Assembly: GCF_046105845.1 (NCBI RefSeq)
Contig: NZ_CP151004.1
DNA: 64,000 nucleotides
Source of the DNA: Escherichia coli
GTDB taxonomy: Bacteria; Pseudomonadota; Gammaproteobacteria; Enterobacterales; Enterobacteriaceae
Reading direction: 5' to 3' (one strand)
The position numbers were made by a program, and so were the translations under genes. The notes under the pieces were generated by a model, which was not told the origin of the DNA, made no database searches, and saw nothing but the letters and a program-made list of their open reading frames with translations. Shown here in pieces: positions 4,532-48,374 of the stretch (the stretch's first letter is position 1; each line of letters begins with the position of its first letter).

Positions 4532-4684
4532 CTACTTCTTCGGTTCGTAAGCGAGAACAGCCTTAAACTCAATATTACGTTCCTTCACCGTAAACTCACA
4601 CAGCGAGTCTCCGACCAGAAGCGTAAATCCCAGCACCGTTAAACACAGCACTATGACTGCCACAAGGGCATATTTCGTCAGCAT
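4532..4684 (-). CDS. hokE: Hok family host-killing membrane toxin (50 aa), copy 1
   Basis: [50 protein letters not shown]; small hydrophobic Hok-type peptide; start placed at the internal ATG of ORF 4532..4720. Confidence 0.85.
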
Positions 4685-4784
4685 GTTTATATTGCCTCCA
4701 TGCGAAGAAGGGACTACCATCCAAATTGTTCAGGTTTGGGTAGGTAGCCCCAGGGTTGATAGAAATATCGTCCTGGGGCTTCAT
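4596..4784 (-). CDS. mokE: mok (modulation of killing) reading frame overlapping hok, copy 1
   Basis: 62-aa ORF in a different frame overlapping the hok 5' region, the canonical hok/mok arrangement; conserved in copy 2. Confidence 0.55.
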
Positions 4785-5035
4785 CTTTCCAGACCTCAGA
4801 GTTAACCTGAAACCGGAAAGCTTCAGGCACCCGCCGTTATCTTACCCTTCCTCAGCAAAATAGCTGTTTATTTATACAGTGAATCCTGTTTCGGACTTCT
4901 GTTGGCAAAACTGATCATTGCCCTTAAAACGACATCGCCCGCAGCCATTGCTGACCGCGGGCGAAAGTGTAAAACAGGTGCCTTACCACCCTGACCTGAC
5001 AACCGGATATGCGGGGATTACTCCCCGCACAACGG

Positions 5036-5188
5036 CTACTTCTTCGGTTCGTAAGCGAGAACAGCCTTAAACTCAATATTACGTTCCTTCACCGTAAACT
5101 CACACAGCGAGTCTCCGACCAGAAGCGTAAATCCCAGCACCGTCAAACACAGCACTATGACTGCCGCAAGGGCATATTTCGTCAGCAT
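5036..5188 (-). CDS. hokE: Hok family toxin (50 aa), copy 2 (V8A relative to copy 1)
   Basis: [50 protein letters not shown]. Confidence 0.85.
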
Positions 5189-5288
5189 GTTTATATTGCC
5201 TCCATGCGAAGAAGGGACTACCATCCAAATTGTTTGGGTTTGGAGTGGCAGCCCCAGGGTTGATAGAAATATCGTCCTGGGGCTTCAT
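5100..5288 (-). CDS. mokE: mok reading frame overlapping hok, copy 2
   Basis: 62-aa ORF with 3 substitutions relative to the copy 1 mok; same overlap geometry. Confidence 0.55.
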
Positions 5289-5622
5289 CTTTCCAGACCT
5301 CAGAGTTAACCTGAAACCGGAAAGCTTCAGGCACCCGCCGTTATCTTACCCTTCTTCAGCAAAATGGCTGTTTATTTATACAGTGAGTCCTGTTTCGGAC
5401 TTCTCAATCCTCATTTGATCAACTGAAGCTGAACCCGTTTTTTTTCTGCATGCCTCAATCGTCAAAATTCTTCGCCACCAGTCCGCACTGCCATAACTTG
5501 TCATATTGCAAAATGTAGCCAATTTGCTTCAGTCACCATCATCAAAAAAAGAAACATTCCAGAACTTCCGCATCTCGCCCAGTCGCTCCCACTTCTATAC
5601 TGAATAGAAAACGCCAACATAA

Positions 5623-11144: not shown

Positions 11145-14100
11145 TTATTTCCGTACCCGATGTCGGTGCAGCCACATCAGCTTATACGCCGCCGGGATAA
11201 TAAACAGCGACAGCAAAGGCGCGGTGATCATGCCGCCAATCATCGGCGCGGCAATCCGGCTCATCACCTCTGATCCTGCCCCCGTTCCCCACAGAATCGG
11301 CAGCAGACCAGCGATAATCACCGCCACCGTCATCGCTTTCGGGCGCACGCGCAGGACAGCGCCGTGATACAACGCCTCATCCAGCTTCTGCTCGCTGAAT
11401 GTTTGCGGATTATTCAACGACGGCTCGGCCTCTATGGCGTGACGTAAATACATCAGCATCACCACGCCAAATTCGGCGGCGACTCCGGCGAGGGCAATAA
11501 AACCGGTGCCCGTCGCCACGGAAAGATGAAAGCCCATCCACCACAGCAACCAGATGCCGCCCACCAGCGCAAACGGTACGCTGCTGATAATCAGCAACGC
11601 TTCGCCCACCCGACGGAACGCCAGATACAACAGCACGAAGATGATCATCAACGTCATCGGCACCATGAGTTTCAGCTTATGGTTGGCGCGCTCCAGTAGC
11701 TCGAACTGCCCGGAGAATGCCACGCTGGTGCCCGGTTTTAACTGCACTTTTTCAGCTATCGCTTTTTGCAAATCGTGAACCACCGACACCATGTCACGAT
11801 CGCGGGCATCGATATAAATCCAGCTCGTCGGGCGCGCATTCTCGGTTTTCAGCATCGACGGTCCGGTAGAGACTTTAACGTCGGCCACGTCTGCCAGGGT
11901 GATTTGCTGCTTCATCGGCGTCAGGATCGGCAACTGGCGCAGCGCCTGCGGACTATCGCGCCAGCTTTGCGGATAACGCAGATTAATTGGATAACGGGCA
12001 ATCCCTTCCACCGTTTCGCCAACCATCGCCCCGCCCACCGCAGATGTCACAAACAACTGCACATCCGCCACCGTCATACCGTAACGCGCGGCTTTTTCAC
12101 GGTTAATCTCAACGTTGATATAGCGCCCACCTTCCAGACGTTCAGCAAGGGCAGAAGCCACGCCTGGCACCGTTCGTGCCACTTCTTCAATTTGCTCCGC
12201 CATCGCGTCGATATCCGCCAGCACAGTGCCGGAAACTTTAATGCCGATGGGGCTTTTAATGCCAGTCGAGAGCATATCGATACGGTTACGAATTGGCGGC
12301 ACCCACAGATTCGCCAGCCCCGGCAGCCGCACGGTGTTATCCAGTTCCTCGATGATTTTGTCCATCGTCATGCCTGGCCGCCACTGATCTTGTGGCTTAA
12401 GCTGGATGGTCGTTTCTACCATCTCCAGCGGAGCAGAATCGGTGGCGGTTTCCGCTTTCCCGGTTTTGCCAAATACCCGCGCCACTTCAGGTACGCTCAT
12501 AATCAGCTTGTCGGTTTTTTGCAGCATACTCGCCGCCTCTGCTGCGGAAATCCCCGGCAGCGTCGATGGCATATATAACAAGTCGCCTTCATTAATCTGC
12601 GGTAAAAATTCCCCGCCAACTTTATTGAGCGGCCAGAGAATCGTCAGCACCGAAAGCGCTGCCACCAGCAGCGTGGTTTTCGGCCAGTGCAGTACTTTCA
12701 GCAACAGCGGATGATAAACACGAATCAAGAAGCGATTGAGCGGGTTACTGCTTTCTGGCGGAATTTTGCCACGGATCCAGTAACCCATCAGGATAGGGAT
12801 CACTACGATCGCCAGCAGCGCCGCGCCCGCCATCGCATAGGTTTTGGTGAACGCCAACGGGCCAAACAGACGCCCTTCCTGCCCTTCCAGGGTGAAGATC
12901 GGGATAAACGACAGTGTGATAATCAGCAGACTGATAAACAGCGCCGGACCCACTTCAACAGACGCATCGGTAATCACCTGCCAGCGCGTTTTATTATCCA
13001 GCGTGGCGTCAGGATGCTGGTGCTGCCACTCTTCCAGCCGTTTATGCGCATTCTCGATCATGACGATAGCGGCATCGACCATCGCCCCGACGGCAATCGC
13101 AATACCGCCCAGCGACATAATATTGGCGTTCAGTCCCTGAAAGTGCATGACAATAAAAGCAATACACAACCCCAGCGGCAACGAAATAATCGCCACCAGC
13201 GCCGAGCGCACATGCCAGAGAAACAGCGCACAGACTACCGCCACCACAATAAACTCTTCCAGCAACTTGCCGCTGAGGTTGTCGATGGCGCGGTCAATGA
13301 GCTGGCTGCGATCGTATGTTGTAACTATCTCCACGCCTTCCGGCAGACTGCTTTTCAGCGTTTCCAGTTTGTCTTTCACGGCGGCGATCACTTCTCGGGC
13401 GTTTTTGCCGGAGCGCAGGATCACCACCCCGCCCGCCACTTCGCCTTCGCCGTTCAGTTCGGCAATGCCCCGGCGCATCTCCGGGCCAATCTGGACCTTC
13501 GCAACATCGCGCAGATAAACGGGCACGCCATTTTCACTGGCTTTTAAAACGATGTGATTAAAGTCGTCGAGCGTTTGCAGATAGCCGCTGGCGCGCACCA
13601 TATATTCCGCTTCCGCCAGTTCGATCGACGAACCGCCCGCTTCCTGGTTTGAAGCATCCAGCGCGCTTTTTACTTCGGCGAGACTGATACCATATTGCGC
13701 CAGGCGCTGGGGATCGATAACCACCTGATACTCTTTCACCACGCCGCCCACCGACGCCACTTCCGCAACGTCAGGGATGGTTTTTAGCTCATATTTGAGA
13801 AACCAATCCTGCAATGAGCGTAAATCGGCCAGATCGTGCTTACCGCTGCGATCCACCAGTGCATATTCATAGATCCAGCCAACACCCGTGGCATCTGGTC
13901 CCAGCTCGGCGCTGACTCCCGCAGGCAGCTTACCCTGTACCTGGTTGAGGTACTCCAGCACCCGCGAACGCGCCCAGTACGGATCGGTACCATCTTCGAA
14001 AATGACATACACATAAGAGTCGCCAAACTGCGAGAAACCGCGCACAGTCTTCGCGCCAGGCACCGACAACATGGTGGTGGTTAGCGGATAAGTCACCTGA

Positions 14101-14288
14101 TTTTCAACGATTTGCGGTGCCTGACCGGGATAGCTGGTTTTAATAATCACCTGCACATCGGAGAGATCCGGCAGCGCATCCACTGGCGTATTAATGATGG
14201 TCCAGGTGCCCCAGATACTCAGAAACAACGCGCCCATCAGCACCAGAAAACGGTTCGCCACCGAGCGACGAATAATCCATTCAATCAT
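11145..14288 (-). CDS. cusA: RND copper/silver efflux inner membrane pump CusA (1047 aa)
   Basis: ORF 11145..14288, HME-RND transporter; last gene of cusCFBA. Confidence 0.95.
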
Positions 14289-14299
14289 TGGTTATTCCC

Positions 14300-15523
14300 T
14301 CAATGCGCATGGGTAGCACTTTCAGAGCGCATCCGCTCCAGTGCGCCAGAAATATTGGCTTCGGAATCAATCAGGAACAGGCCGCTGGAAACCACCTTTT
14401 CACCTTCCGCCAGACCAGAGCGTAACGCGGTGACGCCTTGCGATGCCTGGAAAACGGCAACGCGTTTCGGTACAAAGCGTCCGTCGGCATCAACGGTAAT
14501 CACCCGCTGTTCACTGCCGGTATCAATCAGCGCCTGTGACGGAATGAGCAGCATCGGTTCGCTGGTGGTATTGAGTTGCAACCAGGCGTTCATGCCCGGT
14601 TTTAGCGACTCGTCGGCGTTGTCGACTTCCAGACGCAGCTGCAGCGTGCGGGTCGCGGCATCCACGCCGGGTAGCAGCGTCCATTTGCGAATGGTGAGTG
14701 TTTTATCAGGTCGCGCCGGAACGGTGAGCGTAAACTGCGAGGCATCTTTCACCAGCCAGGCGATGGACTCCGGGATCGCTGCAGTGACCCACACCGGGTC
14801 CATACCCTGAATTTTCGCGACCACATTATCTTTGGCGATATTCATTCCCGCGCGCAGATCAAACGCGGTGATCACGCCATCAATGGGCGCTTTGAGCGTA
14901 AAGCGAGTCTGTATTTTTTGCGTGGCGATCAGGCGGCGAATATCCGCCTCCGGCATTCCCGCCAGTCGCAGTCGCTCAAGAATGCCTTCAGTCTGGGTCG
15001 CCGTACCGCCGGTTTCGCGCAGCAGTAAATACTCACTCTGCGCTTCCACCCAGTCGGGAATGGTCAGGTCGAGAAGCGGTGTGCCCTTTTGTACTTTATC
15101 GCCCACCGTAAGCGGATACACCTTGTCGATAAATCCGGCAGCGCGAGCCTGCACAATGGCATACTGATACTCGTTGTAACTGACATTCGCCGGGAAACTC
15201 TGGGCAAAAGTCAGCGGCCCGCGCGTGACGGTAGCCGTTTTCACCCCCAGATTCTGCGTCTGGGTCGGGTCAATGCGTACACCAGACGCAGAACTCTCTT
15301 CATCGGCATATTTCGGCACCAGATCCATATCCATAAACGGCGATTTACCTGGTTTATCGAACCGCGTATTGGGATACATCGGGTCGTACCAGAATAAGAT
15401 TTTACGTTCTGCGGTCGGCGTTTTTTCTGCGGGCGGTTCAGCCTTTGCAAACCAGGTAAAACCTGCCGCAGAAATAATACCGCCCGCGATCATGCTGCCG
15501 ATAATAAGCGCGATTTTTTTCAT
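14300..15523 (-). CDS. cusB: Copper/silver efflux membrane fusion (periplasmic adaptor) protein CusB (407 aa)
   Basis: ORF 14300..15523; operon position between cusF and cusA. Confidence 0.93.
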   Translation of the reverse strand: MKKIALIIGSMIAGGIISAAGFTWFAKAEPPAEKTPTAERKILFWYDPMYPNTRFDKPGKSPFMDMDLVPKYADEESSASGVRIDPTQTQNLGVKTATVTRGPLTFAQSFPANVSYNEYQYAIVQARAAGFIDKVYPLTVGDKVQKGTPLLDLTIPDWVEAQSEYLLLRETGGTATQTEGILERLRLAGMPEADIRRLIATQKIQTRFTLKAPIDGVITAFDLRAGMNIAKDNVVAKIQGMDPVWVTAAIPESIAWLVKDASQFTLTVPARPDKTLTIRKWTLLPGVDAATRTLQLRLEVDNADESLKPGMNAWLQLNTTSEPMLLIPSQALIDTGSEQRVITVDADGRFVPKRVAVFQASQGVTALRSGLAEGEKVVSSGLFLIDSEANISGALERMRSESATHAH

Positions 15524-15538
15524 CTCATTAAACCTGGG

Positions 15539-15871
15539 TTACTGGCTGACTTTAATATCCTGTAATAAAGAAAGGTTGCCCTGCTGGACAAAATTAAACG
15601 CCACTTTGTCGCCGGTTTTAATTTCACTCATTTTCGTCTGCGGGGTGATGGTAAAGCGCATGGTCATCTCCGGCCAGTTCACGGCTACAATCGGATCGTG
15701 ATGGATGGTGATTTTTTTGCTTTCCAGATCAACACCTTTTACCACCCCAGTGGCGCTAATGACCTGTGGTTTTGCTTCGCTCGTGGTTTCATGATGATGT
15801 TCGTTAGCCTGGGCATTAAAGCCAATAATGGTAAACAGACTGAACATTGCGACTTGCAGTGCTTTTTTCAT
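15539..15871 (-). CDS. cusF: Periplasmic copper/silver chaperone CusF (110 aa)
   Basis: ORF 15539..15871; signal peptide plus small periplasmic domain; His-rich N-terminal segment. Confidence 0.93.
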   Translation of the reverse strand: MKKALQVAMFSLFTIIGFNAQANEHHHETTSEAKPQVISATGVVKGVDLESKKITIHHDPIVAVNWPEMTMRFTITPQTKMSEIKTGDKVAFNFVQQGNLSLLQDIKVSQ

Positions 15872-15894
15872 TTATTCTCTCCTGGAGTTAAAAA

Positions 15895-17277
15895 TTATTG
15901 CTGCCAACCGCCACCAAGTGCGGCATATAAAGAAATTTCGTTAACCTGACGGGCATAATTCAGGTCAAGTAAGGTTTGTCGGGTTGCAAATAAAGAACGC
16001 TCGGCATCCAGCACTTCCAGATAACTTACCGCGCCGTGCTGATATAATGCCCGCGCCCGTTGCAAAGTAATTTGCAGCGACGCCAGATAACGCTGCTGGG
16101 CGCTGATTTGATCGTTCAGGCTTTGACGTAATGCCAGCGCATCTGCCACTTCTTTAAAGGCGTTCTGGATTTTCTGTTCATAATTCACTACCGACTGCTG
16201 CTGGCGAATTTCGGCGATATCCAGATTGGCCTGGTTGCGTCCGGCATTAAAAATGGGGATCTCAATTTTCGGAATAAAATTCCACATCCCGCTGCTGGCG
16301 TTAAATAATGACGACAGATCGCTGCTGGCGGTTGATATTCCGCTGGTCAGGCTTATAGATGGGAAAAATGCCGCGCGTGCGGCCCCAATATTGGCATTAG
16401 CCGCCATTAACGCGTGTTCAGCTTCCATAATATCCGGGCGCTGCAATAAGATTTGCGACGACAAGCCCGCCGGTAATTTAACGCTTTGCAGGCTGTCGCT
16501 GTTTACTGTCTGCGCTTGCGGCAGCTTGCCGTAGCTTCCCAATAACAGTTGCAATGCATTATTCGCCTGCGCCAGTTCCCCCTGACGTTTAGCGATGTCA
16601 CTGCGGGTACTTTCTATCACCCCGCGAGCCTGTTCCAGCGCCAGAACATTGCTGCTACCGGTCAACAGTTGTTTTTCGACAAACGCATATGACTGCTGAT
16701 AATTACGCAGCGTTTCTTCGGCGATTTGCAATTGCGCATACGCCAGCTGCTGATTGAAATAGCTTTGCGCGACATTAGAAACCAGCAGAATATGCACCGC
16801 GCGCTGGGCTTCCTCCGTGGCTAAATAATTTTGGCGCTCGGCTTCGCTCATGTTCTTTAAGCGACCGAAAAAATCGAGATCAAAGCTGGCGTTAAGGCCA
16901 GTCGAGAACTCCCGCGTCGTGGCTGAATCGCCTTTAAGATTGCCGCTCCAGCTGCCGCTGCCCTCGCCATTGAGCTGTGGGTAGCGGTCGGTATCGGTCA
17001 GACGATATTGCGCCCGCGCTTCCTGCACTTTCAGCGTCGCCATGCGCAAATCCCGGTTATTCACCAGCGCCTCGCTAATCAGCGTCTTCACCTGATTATC
17101 AACAAAAAAGGTGCGCCAGCCCGCGTTCTGGTAGTTATCTGCTGCGTTAACCAGGCCGTTCTGGCTGAGTGAGAACTGCTGCGGCACGGGCATTGCCGGA
17201 CGCTGATAATCCGGTGCCAGTGAACAACCGGTTAGCGCAAGGGCCACACAAAATGGCAGAAGTTTACAAGGAGACAT
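15895..17277 (-). CDS. cusC: Outer membrane factor CusC (lipoprotein, TolC-like)
   Basis: MSPCKLLPFCVALALTGCSLAPDYQRP... with lipobox LTGC; first gene of cusCFBA. Confidence 0.93.
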   Translation of the reverse strand: MSPCKLLPFCVALALTGCSLAPDYQRPAMPVPQQFSLSQNGLVNAADNYQNAGWRTFFVDNQVKTLISEALVNNRDLRMATLKVQEARAQYRLTDTDRYPQLNGEGSGSWSGNLKGDSATTREFSTGLNASFDLDFFGRLKNMSEAERQNYLATEEAQRAVHILLVSNVAQSYFNQQLAYAQLQIAEETLRNYQQSYAFVEKQLLTGSSNVLALEQARGVIESTRSDIAKRQGELAQANNALQLLLGSYGKLPQAQTVNSDSLQSVKLPAGLSSQILLQRPDIMEAEHALMAANANIGAARAAFFPSISLTSGISTASSDLSSLFNASSGMWNFIPKIEIPIFNAGRNQANLDIAEIRQQQSVVNYEQKIQNAFKEVADALALRQSLNDQISAQQRYLASLQITLQRARALYQHGAVSYLEVLDAERSLFATRQTLLDLNYARQVNEISLYAALGGGWQQ

Positions 17278-17346
17278 AGGCTCATAATTTCTGGTGATTT
17301 TATGCTGCCAACTTTACTCGCCAGGCTCTGATTTTCCGGTGACAGG

Positions 17347-17368
17347 AAAATGACAAAATTGTCATTTT
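17347..17368. promoter_or_regulatory. CusR box (palindromic operator) in the cusC-cusR divergent promoter region
   Basis: aaaatgacaaaattgtcatttt, a perfect inverted repeat of the type bound by CusR. Confidence 0.75.
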
Positions 17369-17433
17369 GCCAATAAGCGATTGCCATCTGATCCCGCTAC
17401 TCTAGAATTGCCCGGGCAACATGCGGAGGAAAT

Positions 17434-18117
17434 ATGAAACTGTTGATTGTCGAAGATGAAAAGAAAACCGGAGAATACTTGACCAAAGGGTTAACCGAAG
17501 CCGGTTTTGTGGTCGATTTGGCCGACAATGGGCTGAATGGCTACCATCTGGCGATGACCGGTGATTATGACCTGATAATTCTCGATATTATGCTGCCGGA
17601 CGTGAACGGCTGGGATATCGTGCGCATGTTGCGTTCCGCCAATAAAGGGATGCCGATTCTGTTGCTTACCGCGCTTGGTACCATTGAACATCGCGTCAAG
17701 GGGCTGGAGTTGGGGGCGGATGACTACCTGGTGAAGCCGTTCGCTTTTGCTGAACTGCTGGCGCGGGTGCGCACCCTACTACGGCGCGGAGCGGCGGTGA
17801 TTATCGAAAGTCAGTTTCAGGTTGCCGATCTGATGGTCGATCTCGTCAGCCGCAAAGTCACCCGTAGCGGCACGCGCATCACGTTGACCAGTAAAGAATT
17901 TACTTTGCTGGAGTTTTTCCTCCGCCATCAGGGTGAAGTGCTGCCCCGCTCGCTTATCGCCTCGCAGGTGTGGGACATGAATTTCGACAGCGACACTAAC
18001 GCTATTGATGTGGCGGTGAAGCGGCTGCGCGGCAAAATCGACAATGATTTTGAACCAAAGTTGATTCAGACCGTGCGCGGCGTGGGTTACATGCTTGAGG
18101 TGCCGGATGGTCAGTAA
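17434..18117 (+). CDS. cusR: Copper-responsive OmpR-family response regulator CusR (227 aa)
   Basis: [25 protein letters not shown]...; receiver plus winged-helix domains. Confidence 0.95.
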
Positions 18118-19549
18118 GCCATTTCAGCGCCCGTTTTCGCTGGCAACCCGCCTGACCTTTTTTATCAGCCTGGCCACCATCGCGGCGTTTTTCGCCTTTG
18201 CCTGGATCATGATCCACTCAGTAAAAGTGCATTTTGCCGAGCAGGATATTAATGATTTAAAAGAGATTAGCGCCACTCTTGAACGGGTACTTAATCACCC
18301 TGACGAAACGCAAGCCCAACGCTTAATGACGCTGGAAGATATCGTCAGTGGTTATTCCAATGTGTTGATTTCCCTGGCAGATAGCCACGGTAAAACGGTG
18401 TATCACTCCCCCGGTGCGCCGGATATCCGCGAGTTTACGCGTGACGCCATACCCGATAAAGACACGCGGGGCGGTGAGGTGTATCTCCTTTCCGGCCCGA
18501 CGATTATGATGCCGGGCCACGGTCACGGGCATATGGAACACAGCAACTGGCGGATGATTAGCTTGCCGGTTGGCCCACTAGTGGACGGCAAACCGATTTA
18601 TACGCTCTACATTGCGCTTTCGATCGATTTTCATCTTCATTACATAAATGATTTGATGAATAAACTTGTAATGACCGCATCGATCATTAGCATCCTGATC
18701 GTCTTTATCGTGCTGTTGGCGGTACATAAAGGTCACGCGCCGATCCGCAGCGTCAGCCGTCAAATCCAGAATATCACCTCGAAAGATCTCGACGTTCGCC
18801 TTGACCCGCAGACCGTGCCGATTGAGCTGGAACAGTTGGTACTGTCGTTCAACCATATGATCGAGCGTATTGAGGATGTCTTTACCCGCCAGTCCAATTT
18901 CTCAGCGGATATCGCCCACGAAATTCGTACACCAATTACGAATCTCATCACGCAAACGGAAATCGCCCTCAGCCAGTCGCGCAGCCAGAAGGAGCTGGAA
19001 GATGTGCTCTACTCTAATCTCGAAGAGCTGACGCGAATGGCGAAAATGGTCAGCGATATGCTGTTTCTCGCCCAAGCCGATAACAACCAGTTAATCCCCG
19101 AAAAGAAAATGCTCAACCTGGCGGATGAAGTCGGCAAAGTGTTCGATTTTTTCGAGGCATTAGCGGAAGATCGCGGCGTGGAGTTGCGGTTTGTTGGTGA
19201 CGAATGTCAGGTTGCGGGCGATCCGCTGATGCTGCGTCGGGCGTTAAGCAACCTGCTTTCTAATGCCCTGCGTTATACGCCAACCGGAGAGGCAATTGTA
19301 GTGCGCTGTCAAATGGTCGATCACCAGGTGCAAGTTACCGTCGAAAACCCCGGTACGCCCATTGCGCCCGAACACTTACCGCGATTGTTTGACCGTTTCT
19401 ACCGCGTTGACCCCTCCCGCCAGCGAAAAGGTGAAGGTAGCGGCATTGGGCTGGCGATAGTGAAATCAATTGTTGTCGCGCATAAAGGCACGGTTGCGGT
19501 AACGTCGGATGCGCAGGGGACAAGGTTTGTTATCATATTACCCGCTTAA
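18107..19549 (+). CDS. cusS: Copper/silver sensor histidine kinase CusS (480 aa)
   Basis: [19 protein letters not shown]...; start at ATG 18107, overlapping the cusR 3' end by 11 nt. Confidence 0.93.
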
Positions 19550-48245: not shown

Positions 48246-48374
48246 GTCATACCACTCGCCTGATTATTTTTAGCTATGTTGGATTTTGCCACGGTTTATA
48301 CCGTGGCTTTTTTTGCGGTAAATTCAGGTAAAAAACGGATGCGGGATAAAATGCATCCGCTCTAATGGCAAGAG

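Follow-up and report, generated by a model that had tools for sequence, protein, structure and literature searches.

The short stretch of DNA between the divergent genes cusC and cusR raises two questions: whether this E. coli strain has kept the native control region of the copper/silver efflux system, and whether a single symmetric CusR site is a sufficient description of it. The window is the whole stretch analysed, 64,000 nucleotides long, and all coordinates refer to it. The intergenic region occupies positions 17278–17433 (156 bp), between the cusC ATG at 17277 on the minus strand and the cusR ATG at 17434 on the plus strand. The first-pass annotation, made from the letters of the DNA, described a perfect CusR palindrome placed centrally between the two genes, a cusS gene starting 11 nt before the cusR stop, and an intact textbook arrangement. 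We put the probability at about 93% that the region is the known native E. coli copper/silver efflux control region with all its defining elements unaltered. No argument against this reading was found in the sequence itself. A cus control region with a CusR box is already known, and the locus is a positive control rather than a discovery.

All six cus genes are present, and none contains an internal stop. On the plus strand lie the response regulator gene cusR (17434–18117, 227 aa; NCBIfam NF007346, 507.9 bits, cut-off 420) and the sensor histidine kinase gene cusS (18107–19549, 480 aa from the ATG at 18107; NF007345, 979 bits, cut-off 423). The minus strand carries cusC, the gene of the outer-membrane channel (15895–17277, 460 aa; NF007347, 903 bits, cut-off 598), followed by the rest of the target operon (11145–15871), which is 95–99.6% identical to K-12. 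This part consists of cusF (15539–15871; NF007348, 200 bits, cut-off 143) and, from the list of open reading frames, cusB (14300–15523) and cusA (11145–14288). CusR was called by an equivalog model and CusS, CusC and CusF by subfamily models, and all of them exceeded the curated cut-offs. Compared with K-12 MG1655, CusR is identical at 227 of 227 residues and has the phospho-acceptor D51, and CusS is identical at 465 of 480 and has H271. CusC shares 453 identical residues with the 457-aa K-12 protein and carries three extra C-terminal residues; for CusF, CusB and CusA the identities are 105/110, 403/407 and 1043/1047. The locus is flanked by pheP, nfrB, nfrA and ybcH, which are the neighbours of the E. 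coli cus locus in K-12 and in the annotation of strain 19KM1831. The divergent cusRS/cusCFBA arrangement is also annotated in K-12, 19KM1831 and SK1144.

The two regulatory genes overlap. The open reading frame of cusS is listed from a TTG at 18095, and the ATG at 18107 is preceded by GAGG at 18097–18100. The cusR stop codon TAA occupies 18115–18117, and the cusS ATG begins 8 nt ahead of its first base. By the coordinates of the open reading frames this makes an 11-nt overlap on the plus strand (18107–18117), so that the 11 nt given in the first-pass annotation hold when the stop codon is counted in. The annotations of K-12 and 19KM1831 contain the same overlap; in K-12 it lies at 594760–594770 on the reverse strand, where cusS ends at 594770 and cusR starts at 594760. 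The start codon of the kinase gene thus lies within the 3' end of the regulator gene, with a GAGG ribosome-binding site before it, as in an overlapping two-component operon. From this layout we infer that cusR and cusS may be translationally coupled.

The CusR box lies at 17347–17368 (no strand assigned) and reads aaaatgacaaaattgtcatttt, that is, AAAATGACAA-AA-TTGTCATTTT. The repeat finder gives two arms of 10 nt each (17347–17356 and 17359–17368) that are 100% complementary and surround a 2-nt centre, AA. The box is symmetric at 20 of 22 positions. Since the AA centre is not self-complementary, "perfect inverted repeat" is exact and the "perfect palindrome" of the first-pass annotation is slightly loose. 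The centre of the box (17357.5) is 2 nt from the midpoint of the spacer (17355.5); 69 nt remain on the cusC side and 65 nt on the cusR side, and the site is central, as had been claimed. The annotation had proposed an alignment with the characterised box. The published E. coli site, AAAATGACAAnnTTGTCATTTT, quoted as a secondary citation in PMC11195947 and placed there between cusRS and cusC(F)BA, matches 17347–17368 with 0 mismatches. When at most 3 mismatches are allowed, AAAATGACAANNTTGTCATTTT occurs at one site of the 64-kb window; 100 shuffles that preserve dinucleotides gave no site. Inside the box, positions 17350–17365 (no strand assigned) form a 16-bp core, ATGACA-AAAT-TGTCAT, with a 6-4-6 layout that agrees at 12 of 12 positions with the family core, whose consensus is ATKACANNNNTGTMAT.

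The region was also compared with other E. coli genomes. The spacer has the same length as in K-12 (595444–595599) and is identical to it at 154 of 156 positions; it is identical throughout to that of strain SK1144. Both differences from K-12 are outside the box: T for C at 17306, and G for A at 17346, the base immediately to the left of the box. The 22-nt box itself is the same as the K-12 box of Yamamoto and Ishihama 2005, as far as the latter is cited in PMC11195947, PMC10920338 and bioRxiv 2020.08.17.251918. Gene order, the length of the overlap and the CusR protein are likewise shared with K-12. The differences are the two spacer substitutions, 15 of 480 CusS residues, a cusC that is 3 codons longer, and the lack of a dispersed repeat between cusC and cusF. 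Among 5426 complete E. coli genomes, 5335 have the cus region. Of 5334 E. coli records, 5148 carry the box and 8 flanking nucleotides without any change, 184 show a single mismatch and 2 show two; the median is one copy per genome. A 40-mer with the G at 17346 is found exactly in 3379 of 5232 E. coli records. The same G raises an adjoining 10-nt inverted repeat (17331–17340 / 17342–17351) to 90% complementarity.

At the far end of cusC the window also differs from K-12. The gap between cusC and cusF is only 23 nt here (in the area of 15872–15906); in K-12 about 125 nt are inserted at this point. The insertion is a dispersed repeat, of which E. coli genomes have a median of 6 copies, and we take its sequence to contain both ERIC primer sequences. 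At 15904–15906 the window has TGG where K-12 has TGA, so K-12 CusC is 3 residues shorter. The junction is of the window type in 3724 of 5426 genomes and of the K-12 type in 1608. Over a larger distance (8000–32000), the best full-length match among the 5426 complete genomes reaches only 98.6% identity over 24 kb, which means that either the strain is not closely represented in the collection or the stretch is mosaic.

Several other features of the window were recorded. A tRNA-Arg gene (anticodon TCT, argU-like; 26776–26852, minus strand) lies directly between an envY-like open reading frame (25969–26730) and a fimZ-like one (27032–27727). Its neighbourhood is as in strain 19KM1831, and no prophage adjoins the tRNA. 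In K-12 this tRNA is the site of the DLP12 prophage. Two tandem matches to the sok antitoxin RNA (4676–4832 and 5180–5336, minus strand; 84 and 80 bits) match two hokE toxin genes in the annotation of the closest genome. Further Rfam matches above the gathering score are STnc480 (48252–48318, minus strand), AgrB (61240–61328, minus strand; 51.4 bits against a gathering score of 40) and ES036 (61811–61853, plus strand). By a rough extrapolation from gene order, the AgrB and ES036 matches are probably near the RHS element and the ylbG region of the closest genome.

The regulation of this sequence has been described in K-12. CusR binds the CusR box in the K-12 spacer and turns on both operons (PMC10920338). 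By ChIP-chip, CusR gave one peak in the genome, at the cus spacer (bioRxiv 2020.08.17.251918), and unphosphorylated CusR also gave a single peak there in gSELEX (PMC8249747). PcusC responded to 2 mM copper in Reg-Seq (PMC12132413), and the cusR promoter is described with one site and about 5-fold autoregulation (PMC9725139). CusR binding and copper-dependent activation of both operons are reported for the K-12 sequence, whose box is identical to ours. Unphosphorylated CusR is said to repress cusCFBA (PMC8249747); given this statement, the box may not be purely an activator site.

A second question is whether the box is all that CusR sees. On the cusC side, at 17340–17344, the minus strand contains a third half-site, TGTCA (TGACA on the plus strand), 11 bp from the cusC-proximal arm and in direct repeat with it. 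The cusR side of the box is without such a half-site. Related loci were taken from a CusR scan with one genome per species, an arbitrary sample that gave at least 80 loci among the matches listed; one was from Citrobacter (98% identity), the single enterobacterial locus of the sample, and the regulators of the rest were 45–70% identical to CusR. Such a sample suffices to define the family core, though not to resolve an enterobacterial footprint in detail. Over the 200 nt that precede each regulator gene, the core was scored as AT[GT]ACA-N4-TGT[AC]AT, with a threshold of at least 11/12. It turned out that 22 of 79 homologous loci among the matches listed have the core upstream of the regulator at this threshold; inside the gene and after shuffling the count was 0/79 in both cases. 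In these 22 loci among the matches listed, the centre of the site is a median of 71 nt from the regulator start codon, compared with 76 in the window. Across loci the bases of the half-sites vary little or not at all, and conservation does not extend to the A/T-rich outer part of the E. coli box. The consensus of the core is the experimentally defined AgrR box (PMC7380067).

We then aligned 23 sites on the core, the window and the 22 loci from the matches listed. On the target-gene side, TGT[CA]A at the 11-bp offset was exact in 10 of 23 and agreed at four or more of five positions in 14 of 23 (among the matches listed). At the same offset on the regulator side the corresponding counts, among the same matches, were 2/23 and 3/23, and the background over all other offsets was 2/1978 exact and 35/1978 at four or more of five. 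Similar flanks were seen in only one pair of the aligned loci, so that the recurrence of the third half-site does not come from redundancy. In many of the CusR/CopR-type loci among the matches listed (L002–L042), a weakly conserved element, G.CAGG (17327–17332 in the window), follows the third half-site at a distance of about 11 nt, which puts it at roughly -28 to -23 of the predicted target promoter. It may represent a fourth half-site in degenerate form, or else a part of the promoter. The sequence AAAATGGCA inside the first cusC codons (17250–17258) resembles a CusR half-site and is complementary to 17360–17369 at 9 of 10 positions. It is single and unpaired, and we set it aside as an operator element, since it is probably a chance half-site.

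Related regulators have operators of the same build. The AgrR box of Cupriavidus metallidurans and the CopR sites of Pseudomonas share with the E. coli site the 16-bp core, a phased flanking half-site in direct repeat, and a location that either overlaps the -35 region of the target promoter or lies immediately ahead of it. The extra in-phase direct repeat occurs at some AgrR/CopR operators. In the E. coli box alone, the symmetry continues on the outside (AAA...TTT) and on the inside (A...T), which gives arms of 10 nt. At AgrR operators the extra repeat contributes to binding and activation, with footprints of roughly -74 to -32, and mutation and interference data show that it aids binding of the cognate regulator (PMC7380067). 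TGACA motifs occur several times in the CopR footprints of P. putida (PMC12428095). For CusR at the E. coli cus locus, no statement that it uses the third half-site was found in the literature searched; the equivalent has been shown for AgrR.

The position of the third half-site takes on meaning relative to the cusC promoter. On the minus strand, TAAAGT at 17311–17316 is the putative -10, because a -10-like hexamer stands at this fixed distance from the core (outward index 33) in 13 of 23 loci among the matches listed. With this hexamer, cusC transcription would start near 17303–17305, the centre of the box would be near -53.5, and the third half-site would cover about -40 to -36. No -35 match at a proper spacing to TAAAGT was found on the cusC side. 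With the third half-site standing in place of a -35, PcusC is likely to be activator-dependent. On the plus strand, the promoter scan gave a candidate cusR promoter, TTGCCA-16 nt-TAGAAT (17381–17408), which matches the consensus at 10 of 12 positions. Its start would be near 17415 and the centre of the box near -57.5. No mapped transcription start of cusC or cusR was found in the literature searched, which excluded the original footprint and primer-extension papers.

CusR and PhoB are both candidate users of the third half-site. Together with the cusC-proximal arm it forms an 18-mer on the minus strand, TGTCATTTTCCTGTCACC (17338–17355), consisting of two TGTCA-type direct repeats with 11-bp periodicity, as in a Pho box. 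We consider it somewhat probable that this direct pair is a PhoB site, that it serves the induction of cusCFBA by phosphate starvation, and that the third half-site is there for PhoB and not for CusR. In classical pho promoters the PhoB site replaces the -35 and lies about 10 bp upstream of the -10; here 22 nt would separate the 18-mer from the putative -10, a longer gap that may count against the PhoB assignment. The experimental data speak for it. PhoB ChIP-seq in K-12 lists TGTCATTTTTCTGTCACC at cusR/cusC (coordinate 595521), and cusC expression was 208 in the wild type versus 50 in the phoB deletion (PMC10294691); an earlier study by ChIP-chip, EMSA and reporters had also named cusR and cusC (PMC3465305). 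The window 18-mer is identical to the K-12 site at 17 of 18 positions, the one difference being the 17346 substitution at position 10, a spacer base that varies among the listed PhoB sites (PMC10294691). However, the PhoB enrichment at cusR/cusC was modest, 3 compared with 14–20 for phoE and phoA (PMC10294691). Compared with a Pho box such as that of pstS, CTGTCATAAAACTGTCAT, the site has the same two TGTCA half-sites in direct repeat 11 bp apart and is reported to be bound by PhoB in K-12 ChIP, but its spacer is T/C-rich and not A-rich, its distance to the putative -10 is longer, and its upstream half-site doubles as an arm of the CusR palindrome.

The distant loci weigh in the other direction: the third half-site is found at the same offset in CusR/CopR/AgrR-type loci, and the extra direct repeat of AgrR serves the cognate regulator (PMC7380067). 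From this comparative analysis we tentatively suggest that CusR itself, and not only PhoB, may use the third half-site in E. coli, as part of an ancestral asymmetric operator that would make PcusC strictly copper-dependent. Binding of PhoB adds to the explanation of the palindrome as a CusR site and does not exclude it.

A different cusC promoter would change this geometry. It would consist of TTGGCA (17311–17306), a 16-nt spacer and AATTAT (17289–17284), would give an almost leaderless mRNA, and would centre the box near -80. This pair is the only candidate that the consensus scan gave on the cusC side (9/12), and the substitution at 17306, at about -2 of the start predicted from TAAAGT, improves its first hexamer from the K-12 TTGGCG to TTGGCA. 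AATTAT, however, ends 6 nt before the cusC ATG and leaves no room for a ribosome-binding site. The hexamer shared by 13 of the 23 loci among the matches listed stands at the position of TAAAGT and not of AATTAT, and the footprints of related activators reach -32 to -40, consistent with the TAAAGT promoter. We regard the TTGGCA promoter as improbable and keep TAAAGT.

Another regulator is known to bind the box, and the palindrome could in principle be mainly the operator of HprR (YedW), so that the locus would answer H2O2/HOCl and not copper. In gSELEX, HprR gave its single strongest peak in the cusRS/cusCFBA spacer (PMC8249747), and its recognition sequence is described as that of CusR, bound with a different affinity (PMC8249747, PMC9302797). 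The box at hprR-hiuH, CATTACAAAATTGTAATG, has the same 6-4-6 layout and an identical AAAT spacer, and both CusR and HprR bind it (PMC9302797, PMC8249747); its half-sites are ATTACA, compared with ATGACA here, and it belongs to a separate locus outside the window. But HprR has a box of its own at hprR/hiuH (PMC9302797), and the regulator that is adjacent to our site and conserved together with it is CusR, with the same sequence as the characterised protein. For PcusC, induction by copper is documented, and so is ChIP of CusR at the site (bioRxiv 2020.08.17.251918, PMC9725139, PMC12132413). At msrP, a shared target, it has already been indicated that copper induction is lost without cusR and kept without hprR (PMC9302797). 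A locus that answers mainly to HprR is very unlikely; where HprR uses the box, this is cross-talk that adds to CusR control and does not replace it.

We give practically no weight to the idea that the repeat arose by chance or works as a hairpin in RNA, be it a terminator or an attenuator: its RNA form can fold into an A/U-rich hairpin of 9–11 bp, but the repeat appears in 0 of 100 shuffles and hardly varies within E. coli, the predicted fold does not surpass those of shuffled sequences (z = -0.56 and -1.23), the terminator scan found no T-run terminator at the repeat, which lies upstream of both predicted starts, conservation across species is in the half-site bases and not in pairing, and no Rfam family was found at the cus control locus, and the z-scores, the terminator scan and the Rfam search led us to reject an RNA structure. 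We also compared the spacer with plasmids by blastn (words of 11 bases). No sil/pco operator was detectable at the DNA level; the only matches were E. coli records whose cus loci are of the chromosomal type and, over part of its length, a Klebsiella cusR.

With CusR as the regulator that the palindrome serves, the elements can be put together as follows. CusS would sense periplasmic Cu(I)/Ag(I) and phosphorylate CusR on D51, and a CusR dimer would then bind the inverted repeat at 17347–17368. From this single central site both divergent promoters would be activated, cusCFBA leftwards and cusRS rightwards, the latter as positive autoregulation. Translation of cusS would begin at the ATG inside the end of cusR, from a ribosome-binding site located in cusR codons, so that both proteins would come from one mRNA. 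PcusR, with a near-consensus -35 and -10, could be active at a basal level. PcusC would have a -10 and no -35; in that place, at about -40 to -36, stands the third TGTCA half-site, in phase and in direct repeat with the proximal arm.

The textbook arrangement named in the first-pass annotation is thus intact, with an identical CusR and an unchanged box, but as a description it is incomplete: the third half-site with the PhoB site, and the use of the box by HprR, are missing from it. These additions have already been published for K-12 or for homologous systems. The proposal that the region may serve as an internal control seems fair to us. The genes, the operator and the overlap had been named correctly from the raw sequence; as a calibration point, this supports confidence in the other regulatory calls of that annotation, and does not verify them.

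For the strain itself, the result means that its chromosomal copper/silver efflux system is complete and presumably functional, and that operator and regulator are unaltered. The "single symmetric CusR site" is too simple a picture: there are three in-phase half-sites, and their layout is asymmetric towards the efflux operon. The half-sites of the spacer are used by at least three regulators of the OmpR family, CusR, HprR and PhoB, as the literature already contains in pieces. If the third half-site is used by CusR, the palindrome-bound dimer would bring additional CusR to about -40 to -36, replacing the -35 at PcusC, and PcusR, which is without a third half-site and has near-consensus hexamers, would be only mildly autoregulated. 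The asymmetry of the operator would then be ancestral to the CusR/CopR-type loci of the beta- and gamma-proteobacteria.
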